Source: a virus (taxonomy: Duplodnaviria; Caudoviricetes). Taken from it: a stretch of DNA of 64,000 nucleotides. The stretch lies in IMG/VR virus record IMGVR_UViG_3300043010_000145. One strand, 5' to 3'. This document shows, piece by piece, positions 8,740-14,046 of this stretch. Position 1 is the stretch's first letter. Each line of letters begins with the position of its first letter. Made by a program: the position numbers and the translations under genes. Below the pieces are notes generated by a model. That model saw nothing but the letters and a program-made list of their open reading frames with translations. It made no database searches and was not told the origin of the DNA.

Positions 8740-8877
8740 AATAGGAAGAAGTTTGTGTGAATACAAACTTCTTTTCTTTGGGTATTATTTTTGTAATTTA
8801 GTCTATGATAACTATTTTTTGTTTAAAATAGTTAATCTTATGCTTGATTTAATTGTATAGATGGGTATAATAATACT

Positions 8878-8990
8878 CAGAAAGAGGCAAAACAAAATAA
8901 TACATCTCGGTGCCTCTTTTAGTAGTAAAGTTCCTTTCTAAATTCATTACATTGAAAAAGTCATGATTCCCCACATGGCTTTTTCTTTTG
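8878..8990 (+). ncRNA. sRNA cassette copy E
   Basis: TTGATT-16-TATAAT; AAAGAGGCA/TGCCTCTTT stem; TTCCTTTCT 8931-8939; terminator with ATTCCCCA loop. Confidence 0.55.
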
Positions 8991-9073
8991 CTTGTTTCTT
9001 CTGTTTGCAAACAGTTATATCTTTTAGAAAGGAATATGTACAAGATATTATTGCTTGTACCATAATATGTAAA

Positions 9074-9274
9074 ATGAAATATAATGTGCAATATCTATTT
9101 AACGGTGAGATAGACCTTGAAGTATCCGCAAATAGCCCAGAAGAAGCCGTGCAGAAGTTCTGGAACAAATTCCCAAAAGCAACTATGGATAATCTAAGCA
9201 TTACAGAAGCAAATGAATTGAATATATGCGATAAAGACTGGAACTTCATTTGCTCCGCTGATTTTGAAGAATAA
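9074..9274 (+). CDS. DpnD/PcfM-like small protein, paralog 2
   Basis: MKYNV...VSANSPEEAVQK. Confidence 0.65.
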   Translation: MKYNVQYLFNGEIDLEVSANSPEEAVQKFWNKFPKATMDNLSITEANELNICDKDWNFICSADFEE

Positions 9275-9727
9275 TACATTGTATTATCTTGCTCGTGCAA
9301 AGCACGAGCTTTTCTTTTGTTTTAGTATTTTAGAAAACCTTTAGATTTTCCTGAACTATTACTTAGAGAAGAAATTATACAAGGGTGATAAATTCTATCT
9401 AATTTTGATTTTATTGAACTAGTTGAATACTGTGATTAATTGTTAAAGTTTTTAACTTTTACTTGCAGTTCTTCTAATTTGTGGTATACTGTATTCATAT
9501 AAGGAATAGCATTATATTATGGTGCTTGATTAGAAACATTTAAGTAAGCAATTTAGAACGGTGGAAAAGCATATATTATTTAAAGCTAGCTAAATGATAT
9601 ATGATGGTAAATGTGCACGTTTACTGTGATACTTCCTTGTAAAGCTACCAGTCAGAAAACTCGAAGGTGTGTTACAAAGTTGCGAATTTGTAACAAGGTG
9701 TACCGAGTTAAATATGGAAACGAAAGT

Positions 9728-9756
9728 GTTTGCCCCGCACGGGCGGGGATGTTTCT
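9728..9756 (+). CRISPR. Solitary type I-E-like CRISPR repeat
   Basis: GTTTGCCCCGCACGGGCGGGGATGTTTCT: 29 nt, CCCCGC-4nt-GCGGGG stem, 8-nt 3' tail; single copy seen. Confidence 0.6.
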
Positions 9757-9807
9757 GTTTGCGATAAAGACTGGAATTTTATTTTATCCGCTGATTTCAA
9801 TGATTAA
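9757..9807 (+). pseudogene. 3' remnant of a paralog of gene 9074-9274
   Basis: Encodes VCDKDWNFILSADFND* versus ICDKDWNFICSADFEE*; no upstream frame. Confidence 0.7.
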
Positions 9808-9943
9808 ATTGCTGCTTGGTATGGTTAAAAAGCTCATTTAATGAGCTTTTTCTTTTTGCCTGTCTGTTTGCTTGCAAATAGCTATATCTTTTAGAAAGTG
9901 AGGTTCTGCACCAAAGTAATAATATAGGTGCAATATTCATTGT

Positions 9944-10132
9944 ATGAAATATTATGTAACTTATGTAATAGACGGAAGATTAACCGTTGAAGTGAATGCG
10001 AATAGTTTAGAAGAAGCTGTAACAAAAGCAGATTATGCCTATGATGATGCTAATCTTGGTAAAACAGAAGTTGTTGATTCGTTCTTATCTTTGATAGAAG
10101 ATGAAGATGGGAATTATTTGTTTGAGAGGTGA
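9944..10132 (+). CDS. DpnD/PcfM-like small protein, paralog 3
   Basis: MKYYV...VNANSLEEAVTKA...IEDEDGN. Confidence 0.7.
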   Translation: MKYYVTYVIDGRLTVEVNANSLEEAVTKADYAYDDANLGKTEVVDSFLSLIEDEDGNYLFER

Positions 10133-10136
10133 TTGT

Positions 10137-10310
10137 GTGAAATATTCTGTAACTTATGCAGTAACGATTGATGTAGATGCAAATAGTTTAGAAGAAGCTG
10201 TATCTGCTGCTAATTTTGTCTTATATACTCAGCTTACTCCTAGTGAGTTTCTAACTTATTATTTAGCTTCCGTAGAAGATGCTAAGGGAAATTGTATTTA
10301 TGAAAGCTAG
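10137..10310 (+). CDS. DpnD/PcfM-like small protein, paralog 4
   Basis: GAGAGGTG RBS, GTG start; VDANSLEEAVSAA...VEDAKGN. Confidence 0.65.
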   Translation: MKYSVTYAVTIDVDANSLEEAVSAANFVLYTQLTPSEFLTYYLASVEDAKGNCIYES

Positions 10311-11371: not shown

Positions 11372-11517
11372 TATTTTGCTATTTTCCTTAATTGCTATTC
11401 ATTCTGCTATATTCTATACAATACTATTTTTAAAAAAAATTTCTATGTAACTATTGCAATATATTCTTATTTGGTGTATATTATATATGCAGATAGCGAT
11501 AGGCTATTAAGGAGGAT

Positions 11518-12120
11518 ATGAATATGACTAATACTGAATGGAACAATTTTGAGGAAATCAATCGCTGGAATCAGCACGAAGCGGATTTGCTTAAACAAAT
11601 TGATGCTCACGAGCAACTCACTGCTGCCGAATTATCTGAACTTGTAGAAGATTGCGGTATTGAAACAACTTATGAAGAAAACAATCATTTCTACCAAACA
11701 GCTTATACCACAATTAAATTGGCAGACAGATATTTCACAATTGAGTGGCAAGAAGCATTAAGCCATGTGAATGAGAATATTTTTGAAGAACAGCCTGTTG
11801 AAGTAAAGCAGTTTGATGAAATATACTGGAAAAACTTTGAAGGAATTGCCTTGCACAAGATTGATGCAAAGGAAGAACTGGAATCAATCGAATTGAGCGA
11901 ACTTGTTTCCTTGTACGAAGTAGACCGAAGCTATGAAACAGAAGGGCATTGGTCTAATACAATTCATTCCATTGTAAAACTTGCAGACAGATATTTCTTA
12001 ATTGAATGGGACGAAGATACAACAGAATGTGGTGAAGATGAATTTGTTGCTCAGCCTATTGAAGTTTTAAAAGAAGAAGTTCAGCAAACAATTACAGTTG
12101 TGAACTGGGTTGAAAAATAA
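11518..12120 (+). CDS. Phage-like acidic hypothetical protein (two tandem KLADRYF domains)
   Basis: AGGAGG RBS; internal duplication; paralog of 10479-11060. Confidence 0.8.
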   Translation: MNMTNTEWNNFEEINRWNQHEADLLKQIDAHEQLTAAELSELVEDCGIETTYEENNHFYQTAYTTIKLADRYFTIEWQEALSHVNENIFEEQPVEVKQFDEIYWKNFEGIALHKIDAKEELESIELSELVSLYEVDRSYETEGHWSNTIHSIVKLADRYFLIEWDEDTTECGEDEFVAQPIEVLKEEVQQTITVVNWVEK

Positions 12121-12272
12121 ATTAAATACAGCATATACTCGCTTGAACAACTCAGGCGGGTATTTTTATTTGCTTGCTTTTTTATTCTATTCAGTTAGTA
12201 AACACTAACTATTATTTGATTAAAATATTTATTTTATGCTTGCATTTCGTAAATATAGGAGTATACTTATAA

Positions 12273-12393
12273 TCAGAAAGAGGTACAGAAAACCTTATAA
12301 TAAAACCTTTTGCAAAAACTTCCCCTCTTTCTAATTTAGACATTATTTTTTCCTTTCTGAGAAGAAGCCGTGAATTCCCCACACGGCTTTTTC
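12273..12393 (+). ncRNA. sRNA cassette copy B
   Basis: TTGCAT-16-TATACT; AGAAAGAGG/CCTCTTTCT stem; CAT-6nt-TTCCTTTCT; terminator. Confidence 0.65.
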
Positions 12394-12460
12394 TTTGTCA
12401 AAATTTCTATATCTAATATCAGTAATTAAACAAATAGAAATATACGGAAAGGTGAAAATT

Positions 12461-13621
12461 ATGAACTACATCTCATTATTTAGCAGTGCTGGTGTTGGCT
12501 GCTATGGTTTTCAAAAAGAAAATTATGATTGCATAGCAACAGTGGAAATGTTACCAAGACGAATGGCAATACAACGATATAACAACAAATGTAAATACGA
12601 TACTGGATATATTTGTGGAGATATAACAAAGAAAGATATTCACAACCAAATATTCGAGCAAATTAAACTTTGGAATGAGCCAGTTGATGTCGTCATTGCC
12701 ACTCCGCCATGTCAAGGTATGTCCGTAGCGAATCTAAAAAAGAAAGCAGATAAGGAACTCATTCGTAATTCATTAGTAGTTGAAGCAATTAAGCTCATTA
12801 AATCTATTCAGCCAAAATTCTTTATTTTTGAGAATGTGCCAACTTTTTTGAAAACAATCTGTACGGACACAGACCATTTAGATAAACCAATAGGGCAAGC
12901 CATAGAAGAAAATCTTGCACAAGAATATATTTATGAAGCAAGAACACTAAATTTTGTAAATTATGGCAACAATTCCAGTAGAACGAGAACTCTTGTGATA
13001 GGAGTTTCTCGTTCATATTCTACAAAAATCAAGCCAGCATCATTGTTTCCACAAGAAACAAAGGCAAAGACCGTAAGAGAAGTAATCGGGTATTTGCCAG
13101 CATTACATACTTTTGAAGAAATATCTGCAACAGACATTTATCATTCTTTCCGACCTTATGCTCCACAAATGCGAGAATGGATTTCTTGTCTAAACGAAGG
13201 TGAATCTGCTTTCGATAATGAAGATGATTTAAAGAAACCGCATAAGGTTGTAGACGGGAAGATTGTAATACATCAGCAGAAAAGCCATGATAAATATAAG
13301 CGACAATTCTGGGATAAGCCAGCTTTTTGTGTACACACAAGAATGGATACCTTATCCAGCCAGAATACAATTCACCCACAAGACGATAGAGTTTTTAGTA
13401 TAAGAGAACTAATGCTTCTAATGACCATACCCGAAGATTTTAAATGGTGCGAGCAAAGTTTGGAAGAACTCAATGCTCTGCCAGTAGAAGAAAAGAAGAA
13501 ATATTTGCGAAAAGAAGCACCTACAATTCGTAAAGCAATAGGTGAAGCTGTGCCTACAAGTATATTTCAGCAGATAGCAAGAAATATAAAAGGACAATCT
13601 AGTCTGCTACTGAATAATTAG
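12461..13621 (+). CDS. dcm: C5-cytosine DNA methyltransferase, orphan
   Basis: YISLFSSAG (I), TPPCQG (IV), ENV (VI), IGEAVP (X); RBS before ATG 12461. Confidence 0.9.
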   Translation: MNYISLFSSAGVGCYGFQKENYDCIATVEMLPRRMAIQRYNNKCKYDTGYICGDITKKDIHNQIFEQIKLWNEPVDVVIATPPCQGMSVANLKKKADKELIRNSLVVEAIKLIKSIQPKFFIFENVPTFLKTICTDTDHLDKPIGQAIEENLAQEYIYEARTLNFVNYGNNSSRTRTLVIGVSRSYSTKIKPASLFPQETKAKTVREVIGYLPALHTFEEISATDIYHSFRPYAPQMREWISCLNEGESAFDNEDDLKKPHKVVDGKIVIHQQKSHDKYKRQFWDKPAFCVHTRMDTLSSQNTIHPQDDRVFSIRELMLLMTIPEDFKWCEQSLEELNALPVEEKKKYLRKEAPTIRKAIGEAVPTSIFQQIARNIKGQSSLLLNN

Positions 13622-13695
13622 TAAATACTAATTACTTTTATTCATAAATTTATATTTTGTGCTTGCAATTTATTTATATATGAGTATACTTATAG

Positions 13696-13815
13696 ATAGA
13701 AAGAAGCTAGAGAAAACCTATTAAATACAACAAACTATAATATTCGCTTCTTTCCATTTAAATTACGTCATTGATTTTCAGAAAGAGCAGTGGTTGTTTA
13801 CCACTGTTTTTTCTT
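13696..13815 (+). ncRNA. sRNA cassette copy C
   Basis: Operator plus TTGCAA-16-TATACT; GAAAGAAGC/GCTTCTTTC stem; terminator; anti-SD degenerate. Confidence 0.55.
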
Positions 13816-13917
13816 TGTCTGTACTAGCCATTTTTGAAGTTAGTAAGTACTAACTATATTTCTACACAAATTTATATTTTATGCTTGCAATCTAAAACTA
13901 TAAGAGTATAATAATAA

Positions 13918-14046
13918 TCAGAAAGAGGGTTCACATCTAACGAGCTATGCAAAACAAAAACATTAAATAATTAAAAAGAACCCATCTTTCATGTATATTT
14001 CATTTTGTGTCCTTTCTGAAAACACCGTGCGACTGCACGGTGTTTT
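13918..14046 (+). ncRNA. sRNA cassette copy D
   Basis: Operator plus TTGCAA-16-TATAAT; GAAAGAGGGTTC/GAACCC(A)TCTTTC stem; CAT-6nt-TCCTTTCT; terminator AAAACACCGTGC/GCACGGTGTTTT. Confidence 0.65.

Follow-up and report, generated by a model that had tools for sequence, protein, structure and literature searches.

Candidate sibling small RNA genes with anti-start-site linkers on a gene island from an uncultured, low-GC gut bacterium

We analyzed a 64,000-nucleotide stretch of DNA (referred to below as the window) from the IMG/VR virus record IMGVR_UViG_3300043010_000145, which carries five intergenic units at positions 8878, 11222, 12273, 13696 and 13918, named here U1 to U5 (E, A, B, C and D, respectively, in a preliminary description of this DNA). 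All five were found where that description had placed them, and all lie on the plus strand. We favour their interpretation as paralogous genes for co-regulated "sibling" small regulatory RNAs of approx. 115–150 nt, which would block translation starts; to this reading we give about an even chance. With the same balanced confidence, we regard them as a family that is new but of a kind already known, which would work in the manner of the CiaR-dependent small RNAs (csRNAs) of Streptococcus and the LhrC RNAs of Listeria without being a sequence member of either group, so that the design as such is not new. The proposal currently stands as a well-formed prediction from sequence: the promoter and terminator signals, the covariation of the hairpin arms, the accessibility of the linkers and the geometry of the mirrored start sites were established by sequence analysis and folding.

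According to the favoured model, a strong sigma-A-type promoter would drive each unit, and a palindrome located about 72 bp upstream in four of the five would switch the set jointly. The RNA would begin only a few bases away from a stable hairpin that would protect its 5′ end, and would finish at an efficient intrinsic terminator. Between the two helices, a G-poor, U-rich single strand would expose UCCUUUCU, the complement of an AGAAAGG-type Shine–Dalgarno sequence, and in three units a CAU placed 7–8 nt upstream of UCCUUUCU would be correctly spaced for covering the start codon. The terminator loops of three units would offer an additional exposed UCCCC. Such RNAs would pair with translation-initiation regions and block binding of the 30S subunit, with graded and overlapping sets of targets.

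Anatomy and conservation of the five units

All five units share (i) a sigma-A-type promoter, (ii) a 5′ hairpin with co-varying arms, (iii) a G-poor linker and (iv) an intrinsic terminator. A pattern composed of the promoter and the first seven transcribed bases matched exactly five times in 64 kb, with no match expected from 100 shuffles. The promoters consist of −35-like hexamers (TTGCAA, TTGATT or TTGCAT), a 16-nt spacer and TATACT or TATAAT, and in each unit the 5′ hairpin opens with AGAAAGA, 6–8 bases past the −10 box. The A-rich hairpin loop varies between 21 and 49 nt and the U-rich linker between 25 and 33 nt. Terminator-like sites are in excess in the window (20 observed, 3.5 expected), and those of the five units are among the 20; the terminators of three units contain an ATTCCCCA loop. 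Neither strand of the units encodes a conserved peptide. The earlier view of these loci as self-contained small-RNA cassettes rather than coding genes is supported by the sequence.

U1 occupies approximately positions 8841–8992, with a promoter at 8844–8871, a 5′ hairpin at 8880–8920 (10 bp, 21-nt loop), the linker heptamer CCTTTCT at 8933–8939 and a terminator with a UCCCC loop at 8954–8985. The corresponding parts of U2 (11186–11375) are found at 11189–11216 (promoter), 11225–11301 (hairpin of 14 bp with a 49-nt loop), 11318–11324 (heptamer, preceded by CAT at 11307–11309) and 11332–11364 (terminator, UCCCC loop). U3 (12237–12398) is built in the same way, from a promoter at 12240–12267, a hairpin at 12276–12331 (8–9 bp, 40-nt loop), CAT at 12341–12343, the heptamer at 12352–12358 and a terminator, again with a UCCCC loop, at 12360–12396. 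The heptamer is missing from U4 (13660–13818), which has its promoter at 13663–13690, its hairpin at 13699–13754 (9 bp, 38-nt loop) and its terminator at 13780–13814. In U5 (approximately 13882–14057), the promoter (13885–13912) is followed by a hairpin of 12 bp with one bulge and a 45-nt loop (13921–13990), by CAT (14001–14003), by the heptamer (14011–14017) and by a terminator at 14018–14047.

A palindrome of 14 bp precedes U2–U5 at a fixed place, its centre about 72 bp ahead of the predicted transcription start. It was located at 11144–11157 (U2), 12195–12208 (U3, with one mismatch), 13618–13631 (U4, where it overlaps the stop codon of a methylase gene) and 13840–13853 (U5); the version upstream of U1 is degenerate. 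We take it for a shared protein-binding site, a putative operator by which the set is probably switched together, and this operator may be an activator site.

Folding of the single sequences yielded a 5′ hairpin and a terminator for each unit (z scores of −4.2 to −7.1 relative to shuffled sequences). The structural and identity comparisons concern five paralogs from a single locus. Within the 5′ hairpin, the first six pairs are invariant and distal pairs are altered on both sides (GC to AU, CG to GC, AU to UA). When the 5′ and 3′ arms were exchanged among the units, the cognate combination came first among all 120 permutations, with the best total duplex energy, and RNAalifold, applied to a plain MAFFT alignment, recovered both helices, with 6 of the 22 pairs changed on both sides. 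The co-variation of the stem arms noted in the preliminary description is therefore confirmed by both approaches.

The segments of the units differ greatly in their mean pairwise identity, which amounts to 0.75 in the upstream region (z score of 11.3 versus shuffles), 0.78 in the promoter (17.6) and 0.65 in the terminator (10.7), compared with 0.48 in the loop (−0.1) and 0.55 in the linker (1.6). Judged from these values, the scaffold (upstream region, promoter and terminator) is under constraint, and divergence has reached saturation in the loop and the linker, in agreement with the earlier portrayal of a conserved scaffold bearing a variable loop. The heptamer persists in four of the five linkers despite the divergence of the latter.

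Linkers mirroring translation start sites

CAT precedes the heptamer by 8 nt in U2, by 8 nt in U3 and by 7 nt in U5. The linker of U1 contains the heptamer without CAT, and that of U4 neither of them. On the plus strand of the window, 6 of the 11 occurrences of AGAAAGG, the complement of the heptamer, are situated 7–13 nt ahead of the points where long open reading frames (ORFs) start; going by this usage, AGAAAGG is an ordinary Shine–Dalgarno sequence of the organism. Among the other 26 occurrences of the heptamer on either strand, the same geometry (CAT at a distance of 7 or 8 nt) was observed only three times, at 16042, 28251 and 57587, each time opposite a real gene start. Since this arrangement is found elsewhere only opposite real starts, it was accurate to describe three of the linkers as reverse complements of a ribosome-binding site plus a start codon at the correct spacing, and also to assign an anti-Shine–Dalgarno sequence alone to U1 and none to U4.

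The 3′ tail of Bacillus-type 16S rRNA ends in CCUCCUUUCU, and the linker heptamer appears to copy the end of this tail, a match based on general knowledge of Bacillus-type 16S 3′ ends together with the Shine–Dalgarno usage seen in the window. In the predicted structures, the whole heptamer block is unpaired (probability of 0.60–0.98) and the UCCCC of three terminator loops is exposed (unpaired probability of about 1).

A mirrored start site might also signify a gene on the opposite strand. We consider it very improbable that the units are cis-antisense or type I toxin–antitoxin-like loci, with micro-peptides encoded on the minus strand and the plus-strand RNA as their antisense repressor. Three units do provide a minus-strand ribosome-binding site of correct geometry, with ORFs of 12, 43 and 4 amino acids at the mirrored starts (11309, 12343 and 14003, respectively), but these peptides are mutually unrelated in length and sequence, as the preliminary description had said of their lack of conservation, and they are not hydrophobic. 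The terminator hairpin is placed, on the minus strand, just upstream of the mirrored start (followed in U2 by a short U run), and a minus-strand transcript must therefore first read through it; between terminator and mirrored start there is no minus-strand promoter, nor room for one. The unrelated peptides, the upstream terminator and the missing promoter together make a coding or toxin role unlikely.

The suggestion that the 5′ end of the RNA might pair with the linker and so form a switch is not supported. It draws on a single co-varying position (U-A in U2, C-G in U3 and U5), with a mismatch in U1, and this position may precede the transcription start.

Positions 13775–13785 of U4 are an exact reverse complement (11 nt) of the segment 14012–14022 of U5, which includes anti-Shine–Dalgarno sequence, and the two occupy homologous positions. 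This inverted 11-mer may have arisen by a small inversion, or may be a built-in sponge for the sibling RNAs. The latter idea belongs to a broader explanation, improbable in our view, by which the RNAs would act through protein binding or as sponges: the long, A-rich and G-poor loop, or a helix resembling a Shine–Dalgarno or anti-Shine–Dalgarno sequence, would sequester a sibling RNA, a component of the ribosome or some RNA-binding protein, with U4 as an anti-small RNA. Besides the perfect complement of the U5 seed in U4, the composition of the loops (51% A, 6% G, with CA-rich runs in common) fits this explanation. However, no loop motif is conserved (the loops are no more alike than shuffled sequences), the terminator stem of U4 encloses part of the complement found in that unit, and no RNA-binding protein was recognised among the proteins of the island.

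Targets of the linkers were sought within the window, as had been proposed, by duplex scans that covered 156 start-like sites and, in addition, every position; no outlier above the generic background of ribosome-binding sites emerged. IMG/VR viral contigs do not contain the exact strings of any of the three mirrored start sites. The claim that specific host or competitor mRNAs are silenced is consequently left unsupported by the absence of both.

The three anti-start linkers (U2, U3 and U5) are homologous to one another, those of U2 and U3 being 79% identical over 24 nt, and a tandem duplication of approx. 1050 bp gave rise to U2 and U3 along with the paralogous genes upstream of them. The CAU was therefore inherited. 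The differences between the linkers look like point divergence of one ancestor and not like exchanged modules, and nothing in these diverged copies speaks for the "swappable guides" that had been envisaged on the scaffold. A programmable translation-repressor system is not supported.

The same duplication, the inheritance of CAU in homologous linkers (as opposed to its independent gain) and the target scans without an outlier would suit the view that the units are leftovers or insulators, i.e. duplicated promoter–terminator modules that bound gene cassettes, with the mirrored start as a fossil of inverted gene 5′ ends devoid of a regulatory role. We judge this distinctly unlikely. The hairpin has been kept by compensatory changes and the heptamer retained in four of the five units while loop and linker became saturated, and the spacing between palindrome and promoter is free of insertions and deletions although the loops vary from 21 to 49 nt.

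Another alternative, unlikely but still in contention, holds that the units are cis-acting leaders or attenuators. The promoter of a unit would then also transcribe the downstream gene, with the majority of transcripts ending at the terminator. In read-through transcripts, the linker would pair across the terminator with the downstream Shine–Dalgarno sequence and start codon until some factor opens the helix, and the small RNA would be mainly a by-product. There is no sigma-A-like promoter between the terminator of U3 and the methylase start (12461), and only a weak promoter candidate between the terminator of U1 and the small acidic protein gene at 9074. In the minimum-energy fold of the read-through RNA, the U3 linker pairs with the Shine–Dalgarno sequence, spacer, AUG and the region up to +8 of the methylase gene (translation start region 12440–12470, plus strand; an imperfect duplex of 20 bp) and the U1 linker with a Shine–Dalgarno-like stretch (13 pairs). 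This stretch (9022–9034) lies in the plus-strand leader (9002–9034) of the small acidic gene 9074–9274 and is complementary to two linkers, over 12 nt in U1 and over 13 nt in U2, which makes the leader a possible cis partner of U1 in modelled read-through transcripts. Moreover, a neighbouring, separate RNA unit with a solitary repeat (9460–9852) has the same layout; the gene behind it is a paralog, and its leader is 90% identical.

However, U2 and U5 precede genes with their own promoters, and U4 precedes only U5; RNA contigs of two studies start at 14129 and 14131, just past the promoter predicted for the next gene (start at 14144). The cis duplexes themselves do not rise above the background, with the methylase start region placed 7/156 among the start-like sites and neither cis site within the top 14 of all positions. 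Pyrimidine tracts readily pair with purine-rich Shine–Dalgarno stretches in silico, and similar pairings can be obtained in any read-through fold.

Both modes of action could also be combined. One scaffold would then have two uses in a phage-derived island: an abundant terminated RNA that silences, through the diverged linker of each copy, a particular host or rival mRNA, and a read-through linker that locks the start of the promoter-less gene downstream (for the methylase or the small acidic protein), with the Shine–Dalgarno-like 5′ arm or the inverted copy in U4 as the antagonist. The units would amount to a modular, evolvable silencing kit and not to redundant siblings. We regard this as a long shot.

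Several observations weigh against the sibling small RNA interpretation. Transcription of the units, as well as trans action, repression and co-regulation, is something we infer. The heptamer is absent from U4 and the CAU from U1, the comparisons draw on five paralogs of one locus, and the 16S rRNA gene of the organism itself lies outside the window. No linker duplex exceeds the generic background, U1 and U3 precede genes that have no recognisable promoter, so that for these two units action in cis is no less natural than action in trans, and no relative of the units was detected in any phage, plasmid, viral or metagenome collection searched.

Relatives, RNA data and genomic setting

Comparison of the region with phages and plasmids (blastn) retrieved the methylase only, and an index of other genomes contained no look-alike stretch. 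The strict pattern of promoter and 5′ end gave no match in viral or metagenome contigs. A looser four-block pattern produced none in viral and three in metagenome contigs; these three lacked a hairpin or terminator and were rejected as chance matches. The neighbouring proteins are also encoded on other contigs, and these match the window with 100% identity. The nearest relatives of a 193-amino-acid island protein (51% identical) are encoded in phage early regions without any unit, relatives of the methylase reach at most 62% identity, and a 135-amino-acid protein gave weak partial matches only.

RNA coverage of positions 8500–14600 came from three runs, as assembled contigs with a depth of 1–7, and is uninformative on small RNAs. 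At this resolution, two gut metatranscriptomes contained short contigs over coding genes (9042–9192, 10520–11004, 11505–11655, 11843–12012 and 14129–14453) and none over the units. The contig starts at 14129 and 14131, from two independent gut metatranscriptome studies, are located about 16–18 nt past a TATACT box. They fit a separate start site for the gene of the 135-amino-acid protein, and island genes are present in RNA libraries.

The gene island that carries the units belongs to a low-GC gut bacterium, as yet uncultured; the units are flanked by a tRNA-Leu gene (6453–6540) and by large genes for DUF285/LRR surface proteins. The borders of a mobile element were sought, and we found no integrase, no repeat of the tRNA end or attachment site and no shift in base composition. 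The small acidic island proteins, which start with MKY, show weak matches to phage families. Two island proteins, of 193 amino acids (10479–11060) and 200 amino acids (11518–12120), are paralogs, and their family occurs in phage early regions beside genes for a Sak recombinase, DnaB and a ligase. In a confident AlphaFold model of the 193-amino-acid protein (predicted local distance difference test score of 88.9), a small beta domain comes after a long helix. It had no structural match in PDB at an E value of 0.001; the best local likeness, to a small anti-Cas9 protein, was too weak to use. The promoter of this gene is spanned by an inverted repeat with 13-bp arms (10409–10438), which duplicates its −35 hexamer and is probably an operator distinct from the palindrome of the units.

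An orphan C5 methylase gene (start at 12461) directly follows U3. Farther downstream, two Cas3-HD-like proteins, both lacking a helicase domain, are encoded in tandem at 14652–17124; a word search of 5.8 billion proteins revealed no relative of the first of them but itself. The gap between their genes (15710–15930) contains about ten copies of a 17/34-nt tandem repeat, and short tandem arrays with periods of 15, 16 and 32 nt are far more numerous at 47.1–48.9 kb.

The host also possesses a type I-C locus of clustered regularly interspaced short palindromic repeats (CRISPR) with cas genes at 33–41 kb. Its repeat is unlike the units, including their terminators, and the idea that the latter mimic CRISPR repeats was dropped. 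The unit at 9460–9852, a separate promoter-to-terminator unit, contains a single type I-E-like repeat (about 9725–9758), which differs from the type I-C repeat of the cas locus of the window. The 48 nt after it share 83% identity with the final 48 nt of the gene 9074–9274. In DNA and RNA runs, this repeat was found joined to several different spacers, and real arrays with this repeat therefore exist in those samples.

Two copies of a 30-nt leader (9002–9031 and 9869–9898) are 90% identical, each placed after a terminator and ahead of a small acidic MKY gene. This leader has no canonical promoter; its start resembles the −35 region of the units and it includes a Shine–Dalgarno-like stretch followed by a short hairpin.

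Comparison with known regulatory RNAs

Integron attC sites, retron RNAs, CreT-like RNA toxins and riboswitch or T-box leaders were considered as identities of the units and dropped on anatomical grounds. The general features of trans-acting small RNAs, namely a promoter and intrinsic terminator of their own, no ORF and a conserved structure, are all predicted for the units. In par of plasmid pAD1 (RNA I/RNA II), a small RNA likewise extends over the start region of a small ORF and a terminator is common to both strands; here, by contrast, a conserved hydrophobic peptide and a minus-strand promoter are both missing, and on the minus strand the terminator is upstream of the mirrored start.

The sequence features that define the csRNAs are missing from the units. 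No Rfam model matched any unit body at the gathering score or with an E value of up to 5, and the sole overlap was a chance-level match of a counter-transcribed RNA (ctRNA) model on a terminator. The CiaR box (two hexamers in direct repeat, separated by 5 nt, immediately upstream of the −10 box) gave 9 loose matches in the window, with 23.8 expected, and none at the unit promoters. The nonamer found next to the first stem-loop of csRNAs (PMC3091779) has two matches in the window, neither of them within a unit. Without a CiaR box, nonamer or Rfam match, the units were therefore filed as a new csRNA/LhrC-like family.

Small RNAs of low-GC Gram-positive bacteria that use UCCC motifs include RsaE/RoxS, RNAIII, SprD and FsrA (cited in PMC4132741). 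They resemble the units in the exposure, within loops or single strands, of a C/U-rich motif that blocks the ribosome-binding site, for which the UCCCC of three terminator loops is the counterpart here, but they are single-copy regulators of the core genome with a conserved sequence, and no similarity to the units was found.

LhrC1–5 of Listeria monocytogenes are five homologous small RNAs, several of them in tandem, under one two-component regulator (PMC4132741). Like the units, they are G-poor, and redundant CU-rich motifs in their single strand and terminator loop bind Shine–Dalgarno regions. A check for UCCC-type motifs found UCCCC in three terminator loops of the units, UCCUUUCU in place of UCCC in the single strand, and none in the first loops. 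The LhrC copies are nearly identical, unlike our strongly diverged units, whose loop and linker are at the shuffled level, and the two groups share no sequence or Rfam similarity.

The csRNAs of Streptococcus are five similar small RNAs, transcribed from the strongest promoters of one regulon and co-regulated; they consist of two stem-loops and an unpaired region complementary to a Shine–Dalgarno sequence and start codon, and CAU is present in 53 of the 61 predicted csRNAs (PMC3091779). The likeness to the units extends to the number of similar small RNAs per genome (about five; ccnA–E, CiaR-dependent), the strong promoters under one regulator, and the order of 5′ stem-loop, unpaired anti-Shine–Dalgarno sequence with CAU, and terminator stem-loop, the csRNAs being 51–202 nt in size. 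The full arrangement of two stem-loops with complements of both the Shine–Dalgarno sequence and AUG was found in three of our units, the former complement alone in one, and neither in one. The two groups differ in that the unpaired region is the most conserved part of csRNAs and, apart from the heptamer, among the least conserved here, in the putative operator, which is a palindrome at about −72, and in the location of the units in an island of phage-like genes of a low-GC bacterium.

If the units are expressed, they would represent csRNA-like sibling regulators outside Streptococcus that answer to a different operator and are placed among early genes of phage type (small acidic proteins, the orphan cytosine methylase, the Cas3-HD-like proteins and the solitary CRISPR repeat unit). 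The placement of complements to the Shine–Dalgarno sequence and AUG between two hairpins would then be a design that arose more than once in low-GC bacteria, and the diverged copies would provide a natural series for how RNAs that block start sites gain specificity.

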